64,000 nucleotides of DNA from an uncultured Pseudomonadales bacterium (lineage in GTDB: Bacteria; Pseudomonadota; Gammaproteobacteria; Pseudomonadales; UBA7434): the NCBI GenBank assembly GCA_943788835.1, contig CALSRU010000004.1:240300-304299 (forward strand), in the 5' to 3' direction. Below are positions 54,501-63,956 of the stretch, in pieces. Under the pieces are notes generated by a model. The model was not told where the DNA came from, did not search any database, and saw only the letters and a list, made by a program, of their open reading frames with translations. The position numbers were made by a program, and so were the translations under genes. The number at the start of each line of letters is the position of its first letter. The first letter of the stretch is position 1.

Positions 54501-55750
54501 ATAAATGCACAGAGCTGATTAAACTGCTGCCTAAAACTCAACGCAAAAGATTAGTGCCCGCTGCCCAAGTCGCCAAGGCGTTATGTGAGTATATTGCTAT
54601 TGATGATTGTATTAGTCAGTCGCGCTCACTTTTTGTAGAGTTGGCAGCCCAGATAAAAATACATCACGCCGTGGTAATAGATCCGCCCACTTGGCGAAAT
54701 CTGGCTTTGGATAAGTTGGATCCCTTTTATCAACTGCGTATTGAAGTCAGTGACATGCAGGGTAAGCAGATCTGCGAAGGTAGAGATATTGCTGCATTGC
54801 AGCATGAATGTTTGCGAGACTTTGAGCAACGTAGTAGTGACCTCAAGAGCCATGAGGTTAAAGAGAGCCCCATTACTCAGTGGAGTTTTGGCGATCTTAA
54901 TGCAGCGAGGCAGCTAGCTGCACCGGTGAGCGAGTTGACCGGTTTTATGTCTCTGGAGCGCGAGGGGGAAAGGCTGCTTATAGGGCGCTGCGCTACGTTA
55001 AAAGAAGCTGAGGCGCAAACGCGGGGCAATTTGCCGCATCTGGCGATGTATGCTTTGCCGGATAAAGTGCGCTACTTGAAAAAGCAAATATTCAAAGACA
55101 CAAAAAAGATCTTGCCCTATGTTCATTTGGGCGACCGCCAGCAATTAGTCGGCGATTTAATTCGCTTGGCGATTGTGCACTCTTGTTTTGACGATTTTAA
55201 GCAGGGTATGCCGCACACTGAGGCCGAGTTTAAGCAGAGTGTTGACGAAGGGCGCGGAGACCTTATTGCTGTGGCTAACGAATTAGAGGAAGTGACTTAT
55301 CGAATACTGGAGGGTTATCACCAGGTGTCAGCTCTGCTGCAAAAAAAGCGCGAACATTTCCCTGTCCAGTGTGTGGATATCGATGCGCAGCTTAACGAGT
55401 TAGTTTGCCCAGGTTTTTTATTGCAAGCAGGTTATGTGCAGTTGCAGCATTTGCCTCGCTACTTGCAAGCCATTGCCGTGCGGTTAGATCGCTTGGGCGG
55501 TAGGGATGTGAAAGATGCTCAATTGTGTGAAAAGTTGTCATCTTTGCAGCAGCCCCTTCATAATTTGCTATATAAGTACCCACGCGCGCAACTTTATGAT
55601 CAGCAGGTATCTGATTTTAGATGGCTGCTTGAGGAATTGCGCGTGTCGCTATTTGCGCAGCATTTAAAAACCGTTGTGCCCGTTTCAATTCAAAGAGTTC
55701 AAAAAGCGTGGCAAATGATCGACTTCAACCAATATCCACTGGTTCGTTAA
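51515..55750 (+). CDS. hrpA: ATP-dependent RNA helicase HrpA (DEAH box)
   Basis: GETGSGKTTQLP, DEAHERS, TSATID, TNVAETSITVPG, QRSGRSGR, plus the long HrpA C-terminal region. The start is uncertain; the longest ORF begins at 51380. Confidence 0.9.
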   Translation: MSSNSVHRSKLTVASQLVFIDELRPADVPAQAQRLLEMIASALYKDRGRLSRQLEKISKLASDKHDCVDDSQRLLRALQVSLKSVAKRSAPLADMTYPPSLPIASHIDRLRATIAQHPVVIVAGETGSGKTTQLPKICLQLGRGQFGRIGHTQPRRLAARTVAARIAEEMGTNVGDLVGFQHRFSEQLDEGTRVKVMTDGVLLANLHSDRHLREYDTIIIDEAHERSLNIDFLLGMLKTILPRRPDLKLIVTSATIDVKRFADYFDGAPIIEIPGRSFPVAIEYLADNECGAVKGDDTTQIDNDKKVTTRVSQASSVQSLAENSLDDFNGHLIQTLDKIEGLLLNRDSLARDVLVFLPGEREIRDASKALRVLHDRYEVLPLYGRLSVAEQQRIFTLEANAKRGDRKKRRVVLATNVAETSITVPGIGYVIDSGLVRMSRYSPRSKLQRLQVESISKASAQQRSGRSGRIAPGVCYRLYTEEDFNSRPDYTEPEILRTQLAAVILQMKRLGLGDIEKFPFLEAPALRQVTAGVKTLVELGAMHADGRLTAVGRQLSALPIDPRLGRMLLAGLAKHCAAEILVIVSALAVQDPRENPVEKREAARMSHERFAHSQSDFMAWLKLWDYFEAQRQTMTQSQLRKLCAKEYLSYMRMREWRDMHRQLRLAIRAPATKLGASLLPAAWFSLPDDELPYEQIHRAILTGAPLQLGRLDDRSKRKGVVTGKKAKKGFARYLGPRNLGFSIFPGSSQFKQAPRWVMAGEIVETSKVYARTVAAIDPAWIAAELKHLVKYEYAEPYWHRKRGQVVAKRSTLFFGLTLESSTLTAYASIDTLIARQLFIQAALVEQQLDPDHRLLAAAKFWQHNRLVLEKIRVLEARLRRRDLLVEDTVLQAFYQRVIPTHIVSRADLAKWLATASAQEQQVLLLTEQEAYACAPPVDAMEQYPGQFVVGTQAFELSYCFAPGEANDGVTARIPLPEIGTIPLASFEWLVPGMLVDKCTELIKLLPKTQRKRLVPAAQVAKALCEYIAIDDCISQSRSLFVELAAQIKIHHAVVIDPPTWRNLALDKLDPFYQLRIEVSDMQGKQICEGRDIAALQHECLRDFEQRSSDLKSHEVKESPITQWSFGDLNAARQLAAPVSELTGFMSLEREGERLLIGRCATLKEAEAQTRGNLPHLAMYALPDKVRYLKKQIFKDTKKILPYVHLGDRQQLVGDLIRLAIVHSCFDDFKQGMPHTEAEFKQSVDEGRGDLIAVANELEEVTYRILEGYHQVSALLQKKREHFPVQCVDIDAQLNELVCPGFLLQAGYVQLQHLPRYLQAIAVRLDRLGGRDVKDAQLCEKLSSLQQPLHNLLYKYPRAQLYDQQVSDFRWLLEELRVSLFAQHLKTVVPVSIQRVQKAWQMIDFNQYPLVR

Positions 55751-55809
55751 ACAGCAGTTTAGCTAAGCAAGCAGAGCGGCAGTTAGACGCTTTTGCTGAC
55801 GACGAAGCG

Positions 55810-57141
55810 ATGTGCGCTAGCCATGACAGCGCGGATCATAATTCTATTGGGGGCGGGCAGCAGGCGGATGCCGGCGCTTTGCTCAAGGTCAATTCAATTT
55901 GGGTGTCGCTGTCCGGTGGTGAGCAGCTTCATCTTCGGCATTTTTTGCCTGCAGCCGGAACGCCGAGCCAGCACGATGTGGCACATTTTTCCTCTGAGCT
56001 ATTGGATCATTTAACTGATTCTCATGGTCAGCCCAGACGCAGTGTATTTATGCTGCATGGTGAGGCTGAGTGTGGGCGTATTTTTTATGATGACTCAAAT
56101 CGCGGCTTGGCCCGTTACTTGGCAGGTTTAGGTTATGAGGTGTTTGTTGCCGATCTAGGAGGGCGAGGGCGGAGTTTAGTGCCGAATCAGCAGCAGTCGT
56201 CTTTAACCGTGCATGACTTGATCACTGAGGCTATTCCCTCGCTACTGCAGTCCGCTGCTCAACACAGTGTTGTAGTGAACAATACACAGCAACCCGCTGT
56301 AGCTGAGGCCCTTAAGCCCTGCGCCACAGGCCCGGATGTTTGGGTCGCTCACGGTTTTGGCGCCGTGCTTTTGAGTGCTGCTTGGGCCAGAATGCCAGAA
56401 GCCCAGCGCTGCGCAAAACAATGGGTGTTTTTTAATGGGCGCAGACGGTTTAGTGCAACCCAGCGAATTGCAGGTTTCTGTGTGAAGGTGTTTTGTCACT
56501 CAATCACTGAAAAACTCGTTAGCTGGCGCAACTTGTTTCCGGCAACACGCTTGGGCCTGGGAACTGCCGATGAAAATGCGAGTTGGTATCAAACGTATGC
56601 CAGCTGGATGAATGGTAAGTGGTGGTGTGGTGATGATGGGTTCGATTATTCCGCCGCGTTGCTCAGCGCCAAAGTGCCGCCAACATTGCACTTGGCAGCA
56701 GCCAGCGATAAGGTGTTTTCAAACCTTGTTGATGTGCGAAATTTCATTCATGAATTAGGCCCGCATGATGCAAGGCTATTAGTCGTAGACCAAATAGCAG
56801 CGAGTAGGCGGCGCTACAACCATCTATCCATGTTGCTTGATCAGGGTGCCGAGCAGGACTTGTTTGCCCCTCTTCAAAGCTGGCTGCGGCAGGCGCAAGC
56901 TTCGGTGATTGCCAAGCAAGCGAGCGCCACGCAAGATAGTGTCATTGCCCCAGCCCTAGTTGAGTCTGCTTATAACAAACATACAGGCCAGGCCGACCTG
57001 AGCTCTATCGACAGTGACGCGGTAAGCCCTAATTCGCAGGCTGCTATGGTTGAGGCAAATGTTCAGAAGCCATCACTCAAGGAGAGTATGGAAAAGCTGT
57101 CATTGCACGGCAAGGCTGAGCAGCTTGCTGCCTGTCTCTGA
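55810..57141 (+). CDS. Alpha/beta-hydrolase-fold protein with atypical nucleophile elbow
   Basis: VFMLHGEAECGRIFY and VADLGGRGRS resemble an alpha/beta hydrolase. The expected GxSxG position reads AHGFGA. The start is uncertain (the longest ORF, from 55708, overlaps the end of hrpA). Confidence 0.5.
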   Translation: MCASHDSADHNSIGGGQQADAGALLKVNSIWVSLSGGEQLHLRHFLPAAGTPSQHDVAHFSSELLDHLTDSHGQPRRSVFMLHGEAECGRIFYDDSNRGLARYLAGLGYEVFVADLGGRGRSLVPNQQQSSLTVHDLITEAIPSLLQSAAQHSVVVNNTQQPAVAEALKPCATGPDVWVAHGFGAVLLSAAWARMPEAQRCAKQWVFFNGRRRFSATQRIAGFCVKVFCHSITEKLVSWRNLFPATRLGLGTADENASWYQTYASWMNGKWWCGDDGFDYSAALLSAKVPPTLHLAAASDKVFSNLVDVRNFIHELGPHDARLLVVDQIAASRRRYNHLSMLLDQGAEQDLFAPLQSWLRQAQASVIAKQASATQDSVIAPALVESAYNKHTGQADLSSIDSDAVSPNSQAAMVEANVQKPSLKESMEKLSLHGKAEQLAACL

Positions 57142-57213: not shown

Positions 57214-57237
57214 GTGGCCGATGGCCGCTGCTTTTTT
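57214..57237 (+). terminator. Possible intrinsic terminator separating the hydrolase gene from the RiPP operon
   Basis: GTGGCC-gat-GGCCGC stem (one G-U pair, tight loop), followed by TGCTTTTTT. Confidence 0.4.
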
Positions 57238-57360
57238 CCAGGTTCTTCTTAAGTTTACTCGCTACTCATTGTGGGTTGCCCCGCGCAATTAATTGTGGGA
57301 TTGTATTCATGTTTTATAGGCAATACGTGAAGATGCACTGCAAGGGTCTTTTTGTGTAAA

Positions 57361-57383
57361 ATGCCGTTACCTGGGCACGGCAT
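57361..57383 (+). promoter_or_regulatory. Perfect inverted repeat ATGCCGT-N9-ACGGCAT upstream of the precursor gene (candidate operator or 5' UTR hairpin)
   Basis: Read directly. It lies 45-67 nt upstream of the precursor ATG, and an AGGAG RBS follows at about 57417. Confidence 0.3.
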
Positions 57384-57427
57384 CGTGAGCTGAGGATGTA
57401 TTTAGTGAAATTAATGAGGAGTCTGAT

Positions 57428-57682
57428 ATGAGTCAACGTAATGTAAAACCTGCATCGGCGACATTGGGTGCGGCTTTCTTGGCCACGGCTCTCACCGCTG
57501 GGGCTAGCGCAGGGGTGAATCCATTCGCGGCGCAACCGCTGGGAACAGGTTACGACACTGTGCTCTTTGGTGTTAAGGGCGAGGGCGCATGCGGTGAAGG
57601 TGCATGTGGTGAGGGCGCGTGCGGTGAAGGCGCATGTGGCGGTGAAGGCGGCGGCACCGAATCTAAGGAAGGCGAGGAATGA
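57428..57682 (+). CDS. hvfA: RiPP precursor peptide: Sec signal peptide + conserved linker + (EGACG)x4 Cys-repeat core (HvfA/bufferin-like metallophore precursor)
   Basis: 84 aa. Signal peptide MSQRNVKPASATLGAAFLATALTAGASA with an AxA cleavage site. Core GEGACGEGACGEGACGEGACGGEGGG and an acidic tail. AGGAG RBS. It sits directly upstream of the DUF692 and DUF2063 genes. Confidence 0.75.
   Translation: MSQRNVKPASATLGAAFLATALTAGASAGVNPFAAQPLGTGYDTVLFGVKGEGACGEGACGEGACGEGACGGEGGGTESKEGEE
57578..57655 (+). repeat. 15-nt in-frame tandem repeat (4 full copies plus a degenerate fifth) encoding G-E-G-A-C
   Basis: ggcgagggcgcatgc / ggtgaaggtgcatgt / ggtgagggcgcgtgc / ggtgaaggcgcatgt / ggcggtgaaggcggcggc. 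The four full copies differ only at synonymous third positions. Confidence 0.9.
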
Positions 57683-57814
57683 TGTCACAAAGATAAATAG
57701 GGATCGGAGCGCGTTGGACAGTTGCAGGCTGCTTTGCCTAATTCATGATGCTGGAGATAGCAGAGTAGCCGTCGAGCCGAGTGCTTACACCTTAGTTGCT
57801 CGGGCGTATGAACT

Positions 57815-58663
57815 ATGACGTCAGTTTGCTGGTCAGCAGAGAGTGCAGTGGCTGGTATTGGCCTGCGTAGAGAAATTGCTGATGATTTAGCCGCGGCGCC
57901 TGACGGATCATTTGATTTTTTAGAAGTGGCCCCCGAGAACTGGATTCGAGTTGGGGGGCGCTATGCCAAAACTCTGCGAGCCCTGACGGAGCGGGTTCCG
58001 CTAGCGTTGCACGGTCTTTCGCTAAACATCGGTGGTTTTGCCCCCATTGATCTCGAGCTGGTAAATTCCATTGGTTTGTTCATAAAGCAACACCAATGTC
58101 CTATTTATTCTGAACATTTGAGTTATTGCGGCGATCACGGTCATCTCTACGACTTGATGCCGATTCCCTTTAGACGTGATGCAGTTAGGTTTGTAGCTGA
58201 GCGCATAGCGAGAGTGCAGGATGTTTTAGGTCAGCGAATAGCCCTTGAAAATGTTTCCTATTATGCCGCGCCCCAGCAAGAAATTCCCGAAGTTGATTTT
58301 ATCAATGCTGTTGTAAAGCAAGCTGACTGTAATATTCTGTTAGACGTTAATAATGTTTATGTGAATAGTGTTAATCATGGTTATGATGCTAAAGCATTTA
58401 TGCAGAGATTGCCTGCAGATCGCATCGTTTATATGCATGTAGGCGGTCATCTCTTTGAAACTCAGGATTTACGCGTTGATACCCATGGCGATTCAATCGT
58501 AGAGCCAGTCTGGCAGTTATTGAGAGACGCCTATCAAATGTTTGGAGTTGTACCTACGCTGCTTGAGCGAGATTTCAATTTTCCGCCTATGGCCGAATTA
58601 ATGGGGGAGGTTGCCCAGGTGCGGTGCGTGCAGAGGCTTTTTAATGGCGGGGCGAATGTCTGA
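57815..58663 (+). CDS. hvfB: DUF692 / MNIO-family multinuclear non-heme iron oxidase (MbnB/BufB/HvfB-like RiPP maturase)
   Basis: 282 aa. TIM-barrel UPF0276 pattern: GIGLRREI, FDFLEVAPENW, LHGLSLNIGG, YSEHLSYC, IALENVSYY, LLDVNNVYVNSVNHGYD, VDTHG, PTLLERD. Confidence 0.85.
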   Translation: MTSVCWSAESAVAGIGLRREIADDLAAAPDGSFDFLEVAPENWIRVGGRYAKTLRALTERVPLALHGLSLNIGGFAPIDLELVNSIGLFIKQHQCPIYSEHLSYCGDHGHLYDLMPIPFRRDAVRFVAERIARVQDVLGQRIALENVSYYAAPQQEIPEVDFINAVVKQADCNILLDVNNVYVNSVNHGYDAKAFMQRLPADRIVYMHVGGHLFETQDLRVDTHGDSIVEPVWQLLRDAYQMFGVVPTLLERDFNFPPMAELMGEVAQVRCVQRLFNGGANV

Positions 58664-59468
58664 CACTAGCAAGCTTGGTGGTAAAGACTGCGCTGTCGCT
58701 GCGCAAGGGCACGATGAGATGGTCGCTATCCAGAAGCGTTTTAGTGCCCACATGCGCAACCCCGAAGTAAACGCTGGGCCCGCTTTTATTGAGAGTCGGC
58801 GGCTTAAAATCTATAGTGATCTCGTTTATAACAATATTGAACGGCTGGCCCTTAGTGCTTTTCCTGTGGTGCGTTCTCTCTATGGTGATAAGGATTGGCA
58901 GGAATTAGTGCGTAATTTCATCTGTATTCATAGCTGCCAAACCCCATATTTTACGGAGTGGGGCGGTGAATTTATTAATTATTTAGAAAATGAACATCCC
59001 GCAAGCGATAGTGATCAACCATTTTTGCTTGAATTGGCACGGTATGAGTGGGCAGCATCAGCACTCTTTTTCTCAGATGCAGAAAATCCGGCATCGATGA
59101 TTAAGCATGATACTGATGCAGCACTCATCGATGGCGTGCCTCACTTATCGCCACTGGCTTGGCCAATGGTTTTTAGTTATCCGGTGCATAAAATTGGCCA
59201 GCACTTTCAGCCTCATCAGCCTAGTGCCGATCCTGTCTGTTTGGTGGTTTATCGTAACCGGGCAGATCAAGTCCGATTTTTGGAATGCAATGCGGTGACT
59301 GGGCGTATGTTGGAGCTTTTGGAACAAGGTGCTGGCGCTAGCGGTCGAGATTTGCTGCAAACAATTGCCATCGAACTGCGGCACCCCGAGCTGGCTCAAG
59401 TGATTGATGGTGGCCGGGTCATCCTCGAACAGCTACATAGTTTGGATATCATCTATTATTTAAATTGA
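58656..59468 (+). CDS. hvfC: DUF2063-family partner protein (BufC/HvfC-like, substrate-recruiting subunit)
   Basis: The ATG at 58656 overlaps the upstream stop (ATGTCTGA), suggesting translational coupling. DUF2063-like N-domain: QKRFSAHMRNP, LKIYSDLVYNNIERLALSAFPVVRSL, YFTEWGGEFINYL, ELARYEWA. Confidence 0.8.
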   Translation: MSDTSKLGGKDCAVAAQGHDEMVAIQKRFSAHMRNPEVNAGPAFIESRRLKIYSDLVYNNIERLALSAFPVVRSLYGDKDWQELVRNFICIHSCQTPYFTEWGGEFINYLENEHPASDSDQPFLLELARYEWAASALFFSDAENPASMIKHDTDAALIDGVPHLSPLAWPMVFSYPVHKIGQHFQPHQPSADPVCLVVYRNRADQVRFLECNAVTGRMLELLEQGAGASGRDLLQTIAIELRHPELAQVIDGGRVILEQLHSLDIIYYLN

Positions 59469-60677: not shown

Positions 60678-61868
60678 GTGGATTACCCGAATAGCACAAG
60701 TCTTACCAAGGTCTTAATCATTGATGCGGATGCAACGATGCGAGAGCATGTCGCCGATTACTTGCAAAAGACCGGATACAATACCGTTAGTGCCTCAAGT
60801 GGGGAGGCAGGCCTGGCCATGATACAGACTGCAAGTCCTGGGTGTGTCCTTTGCGACCTGAATCTCCCTGAGGTAGGCGGGGTTAGTGTTTTGCAACTTA
60901 TATCCAATGAAGATGCTGAGCTGCCTATCATTGTCATTTCTGGTGAGGGTGAAATGACTGATGTGGTAGAGGCCTTGCGATTGGGCGCCAGCGATTTTCT
61001 GATGAAGCCTATTGTAGACCTCGAAGTTCTCGAGCACGCTATTGAGCGAAGCCTTGAAAGATACAGTCTGCGTCAAGAAAATAGCCGGTATAGGGCACAG
61101 CTAGAGCAGGCTAATAGCGTTTTGAAAAATAATTTGGCTGTGCTTGAGCAAGATCAGCAAGCGGGTTTAATGGTGCAAATGAAAATGTTGCCAGTGAGCC
61201 CAATGCAGAAGGGAGCTTATGTATTCCGCCATCAAATTGTACCCTCGCTATATCTTAGTGGCGATTTTGTAGAGTACGTTACGGTTGGTAACGATCACGT
61301 TGTTTTTTTTGTGGCCGATGTTTCTGGTCATGGTGCCTCGTCGGCATTTGTGACTGTGCTACTGAAAAATCTAACAGCGCGAGTACGCAGCGAATATAAC
61401 CATAGTGGTACCGATACAATACTACATCCGGCTGAGTTTCTAGTGCAGGCTAATGCTGAGTTAATGGCTACCGGGATTGGCAAGCATGCAACGCTATTTT
61501 ATGCAGTGTTAAATACGCGACGAAATAATTTGGTTTATACAGTGGCGGGGCACTTGCCTCTACCTATTCTGATTGCGAACAATGAAGCGCATTATCTTGA
61601 GGGTAAGGGTGCGCCGGTAGGTTTATTTGATGATGCTGAATACGACGAGGTTGAGTTGAGTTTGCCATCGGAGTTTCGTTTGATGTTATTTTCAGACGGT
61701 ATATTAGAGGTGCTTGAAGATGCATCGCTATCAGCCAAAGAAAAATATTTATTAAATCATGCTCCTTCCTCTCGAGCGGACCCTGAGTCCGTTTTGAAAA
61801 ATTATGCGGTTGATTCTACGCAAAAATATCCCGATGATATTGCAGTGCTTTTGGTCGACAAGCATTGA
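60678..61868 (+). CDS. Response regulator fused to PP2C/SpoIIE phosphatase (RssB-like)
   Basis: N-terminal receiver (VLIIDAD..., CVLCDLNLP, VISGEG, DFLMKP). C-terminal PP2C (FVADVSGHGASSAFV, LFSDGILE). GTG start. Confidence 0.8.
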   Translation: MDYPNSTSLTKVLIIDADATMREHVADYLQKTGYNTVSASSGEAGLAMIQTASPGCVLCDLNLPEVGGVSVLQLISNEDAELPIIVISGEGEMTDVVEALRLGASDFLMKPIVDLEVLEHAIERSLERYSLRQENSRYRAQLEQANSVLKNNLAVLEQDQQAGLMVQMKMLPVSPMQKGAYVFRHQIVPSLYLSGDFVEYVTVGNDHVVFFVADVSGHGASSAFVTVLLKNLTARVRSEYNHSGTDTILHPAEFLVQANAELMATGIGKHATLFYAVLNTRRNNLVYTVAGHLPLPILIANNEAHYLEGKGAPVGLFDDAEYDEVELSLPSEFRLMLFSDGILEVLEDASLSAKEKYLLNHAPSSRADPESVLKNYAVDSTQKYPDDIAVLLVDKH

Positions 61869-61913: not shown

Positions 61914-62453
61914 ATGGGTCTGGTTGCGTTGTGCGAGGGTAAGCAGTTGCAAAGTGGTGAAGTGTTTGCTGGATGCGAGGATAAAACATTCTATCTTCGC
62001 ATGACTGGTGATGTTCGTTTGACTTGGAGCGTGAGTCTAGAAGATTATTGTAGGCACATTTTCCAAACTCAGGCGATCGAATTGGTTTTGATTGATCTTT
62101 GTCAGGTGAAAAATCTCGACAGCACGACGTTAGGTATTCTCGCTAAGATTGCAATAGCAGCTAAAGCAGATCTTGGTCGAATGCCTGAAATCTATCTACA
62201 GGATGCAGACATCGAAAGGCTACTGATGAGCATGGGGTTTAGTGCTATCTTTGTGCTGCATAACTCGATGCCGCCGTTGGTGCCTCAATTGCCCCGGCTA
62301 CCCTTGCTTGATGCGTCTGCTTCAGAGATGCAAGAAACGGTCATTGATGCTCACCGCACATTGATGGATATGAATAAGCAGAACAGCGATCAGTTTGAAA
62401 GCTTAGTTAGCACACTGAAGAGTGATCGAGATAAGTCAGGCCCCGCCTCCTAG
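61914..62453 (+). CDS. STAS-domain anti-sigma-factor antagonist-like protein
   Basis: STAS-like core with a putative phospho-Ser motif NLDSTTLGIL. It has a C-terminal extension of about 60 aa. Located directly downstream of the PP2C response regulator. Confidence 0.6.
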   Translation: MGLVALCEGKQLQSGEVFAGCEDKTFYLRMTGDVRLTWSVSLEDYCRHIFQTQAIELVLIDLCQVKNLDSTTLGILAKIAIAAKADLGRMPEIYLQDADIERLLMSMGFSAIFVLHNSMPPLVPQLPRLPLLDASASEMQETVIDAHRTLMDMNKQNSDQFESLVSTLKSDRDKSGPAS

Positions 62454-62699: not shown

Positions 62700-63956
62700 A
62701 TGAAAACGTCCGTTTCGCGCGCCGCGCGTCAAGTTGTCTCGCAACGATCGGTCAACATTCACGTAGCTGAACTACAGCTCGGTATGTTCGTTTCTGATCT
62801 TGACCGTGGCTGGCTGGAAACGCCGTTTGTAACCCAAGGCTTTATCATTGAAACAGAAGAACACCTTGCACTACTGCGTGAATATTGTGACACCGTCTGG
62901 GTCGACAAGGTTTTTAGTAAATGGATAAAAGCTGAGACTCAAGCTGTATTTGAGAGCCCTGCTCATTTGTCATTGATCCACCAAGTGCCCGCCCAAGATG
63001 AACATGAGAATGCGAGCAACATCTATCAAAAGGCTAGGCAGATAACCAAGACACTCATGGATGAAGTCAGGTTAGGACATGCTATTGATACAAAAAGTGC
63101 GAAAGAAGCGGTTTCCGGATGCGTGACGAGTGTGATGCAGAATCCAGACGCATTGCTCTGGATGGCTAAAATGCGTAATTCAGATGAATATACGTCAGAG
63201 CACTGCATGAGCGTGTGTATTTTGGCTATCGCATTTGGCCGTCATTTGGGTATGAACGAAAAAGAACTCAATGATCTTGGTTTATGCGGCTTGCTGCACG
63301 ATGTAGGCAAAATTCAAGTTCCCGATGAAATACTCAATAAGCCGGCGCGACTAAGCAAAGATGAGTGGGCCGTGATGATGAGGCATGCAGCTCATGGTCG
63401 CGACTTATTGCTTTCGACATCTAATATACTGAGCGCTGCCGTTGATGTTGCGTATGCGCACCATGAGCGTATCGACGGGAACGGTTATCCAAGGGGGCTT
63501 AAAGGTGCGGCAATTCCTACCTACGCTAGAATAATCGCTGTTGTTGATACCTATGATGCAGTAACAGCTGATAGGTGCTATGCGCCGGGTATGCCAACGA
63601 CGGACGCGCTGAGAATTCTCTATGAGTCACGCGACACTCACTTTGATGGGCATTTAGTTGACTCTTTCATGAAAATGATTGGGTTATATCCGCCGGGCAC
63701 AATTGTTGAGTTGGTTAATGGTAAGGTCGCGTTGGTGTTGGCTTCGAACCACAAATATCAGCATCTGCCGCGCATCATTCAAATACTTGATGAATGCAAA
63801 AACCAGGTGCCGGAACGCGTTATTAATTTAATGGACGTAGAGAAGGGGCGCTTGGAAAAAGATTACTTTATTAAAAAAGCCCACGTGGACGGGGCCTTTG
63901 GTATTAAGATGTGTGATTATCAATCCAAAGGTATCCAGTTCTCAAGAGCCAGCTAG
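62700..63956 (+). CDS. HD-GYP domain c-di-GMP phosphodiesterase
   Basis: HDVGK metal motif and HHERIDGNGYPRGL (HD-GYP signature). An N-terminal regulatory domain of about 150 aa has unknown function. Confidence 0.85.
   Translation: MKTSVSRAARQVVSQRSVNIHVAELQLGMFVSDLDRGWLETPFVTQGFIIETEEHLALLREYCDTVWVDKVFSKWIKAETQAVFESPAHLSLIHQVPAQDEHENASNIYQKARQITKTLMDEVRLGHAIDTKSAKEAVSGCVTSVMQNPDALLWMAKMRNSDEYTSEHCMSVCILAIAFGRHLGMNEKELNDLGLCGLLHDVGKIQVPDEILNKPARLSKDEWAVMMRHAAHGRDLLLSTSNILSAAVDVAYAHHERIDGNGYPRGLKGAAIPTYARIIAVVDTYDAVTADRCYAPGMPTTDALRILYESRDTHFDGHLVDSFMKMIGLYPPGTIVELVNGKVALVLASNHKYQHLPRIIQILDECKNQVPERVINLMDVEKGRLEKDYFIKKAHVDGAFGIKMCDYQSKGIQFSRAS

Follow-up and report, generated by a model that had tools for sequence, protein, structure and literature searches.

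Four products of the EGKCG type have been characterised among peptides that are made by ribosomes and modified after translation (RiPPs), namely oxazolin, fontiphorin, gonophorin and bulbicupramide, while clusters pairing a multinuclear non-haem iron oxidase (MNIO) with a DUF2063 protein have been catalogued by thousands. In Haemophilus influenzae HvfABC makes oxazolin, six EGKCG Cys residues of which lose 4 Da each, with the signal peptide cleaved and Cu(I) bound (PMC11252979), and the Buf_EGKCG/oxazolin precursor family comprises about 2,000 members (PMC12452194). Work on FonABC and NgoABC, in which oxazolin was re-examined, assigned the modification as 5-thiooxazole, installed by FonBC according to nuclear magnetic resonance proof, and the class name captophorins was proposed there, with more than 20,000 RefSeq clusters (PMC12668002). 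The Rosenzweig group reassigned its own oxazolin to 5-thiooxazole as well (bioRxiv 10.64898/2026.06.05.730506). The same group showed the active state of HvfB to be mixed-valent diiron, formed only when HvfC is present. The three-gene mmrABC cluster of Microbulbifer (bulbicupramide) is conserved in every strain of the genus and encodes EGKCG doublet cassettes; each Cys of MmrA loses 4 H with the formation of thiooxazole rings, and Cu(I) is bound selectively (PMC12538549). Here, we addressed a locus of this kind at positions 57214..59468 of a 64,000-nt stretch of DNA (the window) from an uncultured Pseudomonadales bacterium, where three plus-strand open reading frames (ORFs) in the order A-B-C, termed hvfA, hvfB and hvfC below, encode a repeat peptide (EGACG)x4, an MNIO and a DUF2063 protein. 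All three are present as described in an initial annotation made from the sequence alone. The locus is in our opinion probably an hvfABC/mmrABC-type captophorin operon. The system itself is not new, being an orthologue of Microbulbifer mmrABC, Fontimonas fonABC and Haemophilus hvfABC, and its only unusual feature is the replacement of Lys by Ala in all four repeats, a small variant within a populous RiPP class.

This assignment is supported by the two enzymes. The 282-residue product of hvfB, which the initial annotation had placed in DUF692 after a gap of 132 nt, matches PF05114 (1.5e-100, 336 bits) and passes the NCBIfam equivalog model of HvfB (NF003818), where it gains 412.1 bits with 360 as the cutoff and covers positions 2-264 of the 264 in the model. 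Among proteins of solved structure it is related to PDB 3BWW (2e-71), and its identity amounts to 57% with FonB and to 44% with H. influenzae HvfB (these two and FonC were compared using protein sequences from the supplement of PMC12668002). The motifs HGLSL, SEHLS, ENVSYY, LDVNN, HVGGH, DTHG and LERDF are kept, metal-binding ones among them, and the iron ligands, the catalytic Asp and the Arg-Arg and Phe substrate contacts are conserved as well: residues H66, H101, E145, D177, N180, HVGGH, D222, H224, E251, D253, F254, R18 and R19 align with those of FonB, HvfB and 3BWW. With residue roles taken from PMC12668002 and bioRxiv 10.64898/2026.07.17.739211, N175, D242 and H244 of site 3 in H. influenzae HvfB correspond to N180, D222 and H224 of the window enzyme, the proposed catalytic base D249 of FonB corresponds to D253, and the substrate contacts R15, R16 and F250 of FonB are represented by R18, R19 and F254. 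No variation was seen in the indexed columns across the aligned homologues, truncated contigs aside, and this set includes 15 enzymes adjoining Lys-free precursors. HvfC combines domains PF09836 (9e-23) and PF22106 (1e-29), passes its own equivalog model (NF050145, 268.1 bits against 142), has a solved relative in PDB 3DEE (1e-9) and is 46% identical to FonC. Thus the profile matches anticipated for both proteins, DUF692 and DUF2063 as well as HvfB and HvfC, were all obtained. The partner gene overlaps the hvfB stop as was noticed, and only its length had to be corrected, from 271 to 270 residues.

The same profile searches bear on two neighbouring branches of the enzyme superfamily. A bufferin system, that is BufABC with a DUF2282 or Buf2 precursor in place of the oxazolin/EGKCG type, has an enzyme of the same superfamily, the same type of partner and, as predicted here too, a Sec-signal precursor, and the window MNIO gains 257.2 bits on the BufB model (NF050167). 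This value is nevertheless below the BufB cutoff of 310, unlike the score on the HvfB model, DUF2282 is not matched by the precursor, which aligns to EGxCG-type leaders, and the operon is devoid of sigma/anti-sigma or DoxX genes, which makes a bufferin assignment highly improbable. The scores were also below the cutoffs for ApyH and ChrH. Installation of methanobactin-type oxazolone/thioamide pairs instead of 5-thiooxazoles was the original proposal for HvfA (PMC11252979), and both modifications remove 4 Da and absorb near 300 nm; but the original authors (bioRxiv 10.64898/2026.06.05.730506) and an independent group (PMC12668002) have since reassigned oxazolin to 5-thiooxazole, and the window MNIO attains only 53.7 bits on the MbnB model with its cutoff of 325, so that this chemistry appears quite unlikely here. 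From the two product types named by the initial annotation, thiooxazole was thus retained, while oxazolone/thioamide has been superseded by the reassignment; the EGKCG repeats of HvfA and the loss of 4 Da per Cys stated there were correct (PMC11252979).

The precursor is linked to the family by its repeat-free part. The 84-residue HvfA reads MSQRNVKPASATLGAAFLATALTAGASA, GVNPFAAQPLGTGYDTVLFGVKG, (EGACG)x4 and GEGGGTESKEGEE, the tail being GEGGGTESKEGEE. The predicted Sec signal peptide shows an n-region with R4 and K7, a hydrophobic core over residues 10-27 and ASA at positions -3 to -1, and this prediction, based on sequence features, agrees with homology to signal peptides known to be cleaved (PMC11252979). 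Comparison was made within a survey set of the 80 nearest HvfB loci from species-representative genomes, identity to the window HvfB being at most 67%. Signal-peptide ORFs with EGxCG repeats lie directly upstream of HvfB in about 64 of these loci and HvfC is present in 78, which bears out the earlier expectation that such small ORFs accompany DUF692-DUF2063 pairs. A profile was built from 64 small ORFs upstream of HvfB homologues, each N-terminus being taken as far as the first repeat, and its consensus has ...AsA before and eeNPF after the cleavage site; the first 50 residues of the window peptide score 52 bits on it (E 7e-15) against 12 bits for the best of 1000 shuffles, and for hvfA the family N-terminal profile gives 52-58 bits. 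The NPF…L..GY motif of the leader is seen in the profile alignment and is present in 51 of 64 neighbouring precursors. Since the RRE (RiPP recognition element) of MmrC was modelled on the MmrA leader (PMC12538549), this segment is presumed, by analogy, to be the region recognised by HvfC. The gene directly precedes the MNIO-DUF2063 pair and shares its strand, and no second GxCG-repeat ORF or other candidate precursor was found in the 64-kb window.

The repeat part of the gene carries signs of maintenance. The EGACG units are perfect at the protein level and differ in nucleotides at third codon positions only, and the tandem repeat finder TRF describes the array either with period 15 (4.3 copies) or with period 30 (2.0 copies, 93% match), that is as two EGACGEGACG doublets. 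Modification of the homologous cysteines in EGKCG repeats is known from HvfA, FonA and MmrA (PMC11252979, PMC12668002, PMC12538549). Relatives of the peptide were found at 99% (P0001, 62 contigs) and 90% identity (P0002), and the gene order around them is unchanged. Within the repeats, the window and the 90% relative differ at four nucleotides, all of them synonymous changes, and replacements are found elsewhere in the gene; the EGACG core is therefore under purifying selection. The predicted mature peptide of 56 residues has 10 D+E versus 2 K+R and a net charge of about -8, compared with 15 K+R versus 10 D+E in H. influenzae HvfA and 16 K+R versus 14 D+E in FonA; by its charge, this acidic peptide with a Lys-free core is unlike all characterised members. 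Only 4 matches were returned when the peptide was used as a query in a word-indexed protein search, since its sequence is of low complexity, and a DNA-pattern scan together with the neighbourhood survey told more.

By analogy with the described systems, the following course of events may be proposed. HvfA would be made as an 84-residue pre-peptide, and in the cytoplasm HvfC, with its DUF2063 N-domain and RRE-type C-domain, would bind the NPF…L..GY leader and form a heterodimer with HvfB. The latter, as a multinuclear non-haem iron oxidase, would use O2 to withdraw four electrons from every Cys of (EGACG)x4, so that Cys55, Cys60, Cys65 and Cys70 are expected to become 5-thiooxazoles, each using the carbonyl of the preceding residue, which is Ala and not Lys, with a mass change of -4 Da per site and -16 Da in total. 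Sec would then export the modified peptide, and cleavage after ASA28 would yield the strongly acidic 56-residue peptide in the periplasm, where the two thiooxazole doublets may bind about two Cu(I). Several observations weigh against this scheme. Upstream of hvfA, a sigma-70 promoter consensus is lacking and conservation with the 90%-identical relative is not seen; no match of the window peptide to the curated precursor model NF050137 (KCGExKCG_twice) was obtained even at E<=10; the in vitro tolerance of FonBC for Ala at repeat position 3 (EAACGEGACG; PMC12668002) concerns another enzyme and a two-repeat substrate; and the orthologous Microbulbifer cluster was reported silent, mmrABC expression being undetectable in culture with or without 0.1-0.2 mM added CuSO4 (PMC12538549), and a copper-stress role is not established for the synteny group.

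The latter point leaves room for the possibility that the chemistry proceeds as proposed and serves a purpose other than copper detoxification, for instance copper acquisition by a chalkophore, the binding of a different soft metal, or a redox or envelope-stress role. Besides the absence of induction in Microbulbifer (PMC12538549), the consideration of a chalkophore by the authors of oxazolin (PMC11252979), the residence of a conserved, non-mobile locus beside mlaA and a partner-switching module in about 30 loci, and the peculiar charge of the peptide all speak for it, whereas all characterised members are Cu(I) binders, bufferins confer protection from surplus copper (PMC12452194) and an excess of metal is a common inducer of 5-thiooxazole pathways (PMC12668002). 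We regard such another role as a possible, though less favoured, alternative to copper buffering or detoxification, which is a putative role for the characterised orthologues as well.

The substitution in the core needs to be considered separately. All four window repeats have Ala at the usual Lys position (EGKCG to EGACG), whereas the 446 xGXCG pentads of the 64 neighbouring precursors have 384 Lys (86%), 17 Ser and 15 Ala (3.4%) at the variable position, and no more than 3 of these precursors belong to the Lys-free type. Since Lys is replaced at all four positions, the peptide falls outside the curated NF050137 signature (cutoff 19.5 bits), on which Lys-containing relatives gain 23-90 bits and other Lys-free ones 6.6-18.5 bits or no match; the window peptide is thus homologous to the HvfA family yet lies beyond its curated signature. 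Likewise, the dyads are Ala-Cys in 4/4 cases and not those of the Captophorin Lys-Cys group (PMC12668002), while the enzymes still bear the signature residues of this group, and no co-variation with Lys loss was revealed at R18, R19, D253 and F254 among 15 HvfB sequences associated with Lys-free precursors. One could suppose from the disappearance of the name-giving Lys and the failure of NF050137 that the Lys-free core is a poor substrate or none, the peptide being exported with plain Cys or decaying and the enzymes acting on a peptide encoded elsewhere, and it fits with this that F250 of FonB was modelled in contact with the substrate Lys (PMC12668002) and that orphan precursors exist in some genomes (PMC12452194). 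Such a course of events is nonetheless unlikely, given that repeat changes between the 90%-identical relatives are confined to synonymous ones, that hvfA occupies the canonical position behind a strong ribosome binding site (RBS) in a window lacking another candidate, that FonBC processes EGACG (PMC12668002) and that Lys-free EGACG/EGSCG precursors adjoin HvfB in independent lineages.

The next relative of the peptide (P0003, 68% identical) has EGKCG EGKCG EGACG … EGKCG x3, and the precursor of the closest genome locus (L001) is all-Lys; the Ala state was therefore gained recently inside a Lys-type clade and represents a shallow variant. The EGACG unit may have spread by duplication, which the 30-nt doublet periodicity fits. 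A metagenome scan for three tandem EGACG units yielded 18 stretches, 11 of which (L089, L092, L093, L095-L100, L102, L105) carry Lys-free precursors resembling HvfA, their spacers being poly-Glu/Asp and their leader D/NxF…L..GF; 9 of these 11 contigs also bear an HvfB homologue 52-56% identical to that of the window, and soda-lake sediment and saltern-like samples are the main sources of the Lys-free contigs. Judging from these sequences, the Lys-free EGACG variant recurs independently in other lineages. Thus, the "uncharacterised subfamily" of the initial annotation stands as a real and rare variant and has to be reduced in rank, as it is a shallow, recurrent form of the core in a very large known class and not a deep new lineage. 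In the literature only the engineered FonA variant EAACGEGACG, processed by FonBC (PMC12668002), turned up for EGACG, and in the stored part of the supplementary table of that paper EGACG is encountered as occasional single pentads (5 versus 2951 EGKCG).

Curated models keyed to "KCG" miss Lys-free relatives: NF050137 and NF050188 lean on Lys-Cys dyads, and the Lys-free precursors tested (window, L021, L092, L093, L085) are all below cutoff. Because of this such precursors are likely annotated as hypothetical or low-complexity proteins. That Lys-free, strongly acidic Ala-Cys cores, here and in the soda-lake/saltern lineage, form a functionally distinct and under-annotated sub-type of thiooxazole metallophores is a tentative and rather doubtful suggestion. 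If it were true, the loss of the cationic Lys might alter how soluble the peptide is or how it aggregates with Cu, which metals it selects or which partners it has in the cell; another option would be that saline or alkaline habitats have favoured it as an adaptation. A natural all-Ala core maintained by purifying selection supports the dispensability of Lys for catalysis observed in vitro and predicts a thiooxazole with an Ala-derived substituent, and a minimal peptide with four Cys and two sites may be a handy small substrate for work on mechanism and Cu stoichiometry. The locus opens no new question.

The positions of the features are collected in Table 1. The stop of hvfB and the ATG of hvfC overlap over 8 nt (ATGTCTGA, 58656..58663), which is consistent with translational coupling, and the A-B-C order is maintained in close relatives. 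In near-identical contigs, gene callers give HvfB as 282 or 271 residues and use both ATGs of hvfC (270 or 274 residues). The 84-residue ORF with its good RBS, four repeats and Gly/Glu tail was found as annotated.

Table 1. Features of the hvfABC locus and the adjacent genes (positions in the window)
Feature	Position	Strand	Remarks
Terminator-like hairpin	57214..57228, with T-run to 57238	+	after upstream 477-aa gene; consensus match only
Shine-Dalgarno GAGGAG	57416..57421	+	6 nt before hvfA ATG
hvfA/mmrA-like precursor gene	57428..57682	+	84 aa plus stop
Predicted Sec signal peptide	57428..57511	+	residues 1-28, cleavage after A26-S27-A28; sequence features, hydropathy
Conserved leader-like segment GVNPFAAQPLGTGYDTVLFGVKG	57512..57580	+	NPF…L..GY motif
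Core, four tandem EGACG pentads	57581..57640	+	Cys55, Cys60, Cys65, Cys70 predicted modification sites
Acidic Gly/Glu-rich C-terminal tail GEGGGTESKEGEE	57641..57679	+	direct reading
hvfA-hvfB spacer	57683..57814	+	132 nt
hvfB/mmrB, MNIO (DUF692) peptide maturase	57815..58663	+	282 aa; alternative start 271 aa
hvfC/mmrC, DUF2063 / RRE partner protein	58656..59468	+	270 aa; alternative ATG 58644 = 274 aa
MlaA	59633..60418		downstream of hvfC
Response-regulator/PP2C phosphatase	60678..61868		downstream
179-aa ORF	61914..62453		no family match on record, near-identical contigs
HD-GYP-type protein	62700..63956		downstream

The hairpin with stem GTGGCCGATGGCCGC followed by TGCTTTTTTC would set the operon apart from the preceding 477-aa gene. 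This ORF (55708..57141, plus strand) overlaps the 3′ end of hrpA by 43 nt, has no family match above cutoff, only weak matches to alpha/beta-hydrolases (E about 1e-3), and its homologue is placed between hrpA and hvfA in only 8/80 related loci. An RNA element in the hvfA-hvfB spacer, such as an attenuator or processing site, was considered and rejected, the fold being no better than that of shuffled sequences (z-score -0.91), with neither an Rfam nor a terminator match. A conserved operator or promoter upstream of hvfA did not emerge either: apart from the missing sigma-70 consensus, the perfect 10-bp palindrome CAATTAATTG (57286..57295) is kept in the 99% relative and, like the rest of the region, not in the 90% one. 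The antisense ORF of 124 aa (57314..57688, minus strand) is an artefact mirroring the GC-rich repeat, and mirror ORFs are likewise observed opposite the precursor gene in L001, L028, L068, L075 and L080.

The best match among the 80 HvfB loci is a Pseudomonadales metagenome-assembled genome. Many of the loci are of Cellvibrionales type (Porticoccaceae, Spongiibacteraceae, Halieaceae, Microbulbifer, Cellvibrionaceae), and methanotrophs, nitrifiers and others are also represented; the source of the locus is the chromosome of an uncultured Pseudomonadales/Cellvibrionales-like gammaproteobacterium. The order hrpA … hvfABC … mlaA … response-regulator/PP2C is common to about 27-33 of them, and MlaA and the response-regulator/PP2C gene travel with hvfABC in about 27-29/80. 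Since this synteny is widely shared and GC content and skew of the operon are those of the flanking DNA, hvfABC is a vertically inherited chromosomal locus, and a horizontal transfer island was rejected on the same grounds. HvfX (DoxX-like, NF050144) flanks 22 of the 80 loci and none of those with hrpA/mlaA synteny; in the window a six-frame search did not find it (best 6.9 bits), the profile having been made from 17 HvfX candidates, of which four had been confirmed against NF050144. Nor did Pfam annotation of the flanking 10 kb on each side, taken from near-identical contigs, reveal a protease, transporter, sigma factor or copper regulator, in line with the earlier remark that the operon contains no protease, exporter, DoxX-like gene or regulator.

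Some loci of the survey deviate from this pattern. Twelve of them (L019, L025, L029, L032, L034, L050, L051, L053, L067, L071, L078, L079) have HvfB and no EGxCG-repeat ORF, most of them with HvfX, which suggests another precursor type beside close HvfB relatives. Precursors of L016 and L072 contain an EF-hand-like segment (DADGDGKVTKDEF / DSDGDGRVSRDEF) between EGKCG blocks, a fused type named in PMC12452194. The contig of L016 is labelled "uncultured Halobacteria archaeon" though its hvfABCX contig is gammaproteobacteria-like, and the archaeal label looks like a binning error.

With respect to both architecture and taxonomy, mmrABC is the closest characterised system. It has the same three-gene A-B-C composition, neither a DoxX gene nor a protease having been reported in its vicinity, and the Microbulbifer loci L017, L028 and L031, with HvfB homologues 60-62% identical to that of the window, have hvfA-like ORFs, HvfC and no detected HvfX in the same hrpA-mlaA setting, their precursors possessing a signal peptide and the NPF…L..GY leader. 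MmrA differs in having 5-8 Cys in EGKCG doublet cassettes that Lys-rich spacers separate, while the window peptide has two adjoining EGACG doublets with 4 Cys altogether, is free of Lys-Cys and ends in an acidic tail. The fonABC system of Fontimonas thermophila (fontiphorin) shares the equivalents of R15/R16, D249 and F250 and the F…L..GY leader pattern; FonA has seven EGKCG-type sites and Lys-rich spacers, and EGACG there was an engineered substrate and not a natural core. For hvfXABC of H. influenzae, the Sec signal of the precursor (predicted for the window), doublet Cys repeats and site-3 equivalents are common with the window, and about one Cu(I) is bound per modified Cys pair (PMC11252979; bioRxiv 10.64898/2026.06.05.730506; 10.64898/2026.07.17.739211); in contrast to the window, its HvfA bears an N-terminal disulfide and no NPF…GY leader, its operon includes the DoxX-like hvfX, and its HvfB carries an insertion of about 23 residues. 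Bufferins resemble the locus in the MNIO with DUF2063 partner and, as predicted here, in the Sec-signal precursor, conversion of Cys to thiooxazole and periplasmic copper chelation (PMC12452194), and are distinguished by DUF2282 or Buf2 precursors, by clusters usually containing DoxX and sigma/anti-sigma genes and by a BufB model whose cutoff the window MNIO does not reach. Methanobactin MbnABC shares the MNIO superfamily and, as predicted here, a Cys-derived copper ligand, whereas its oxazolone/thioamide product, leader peptide devoid of a Sec signal, MbnC partner and dedicated export and uptake genes set it apart.

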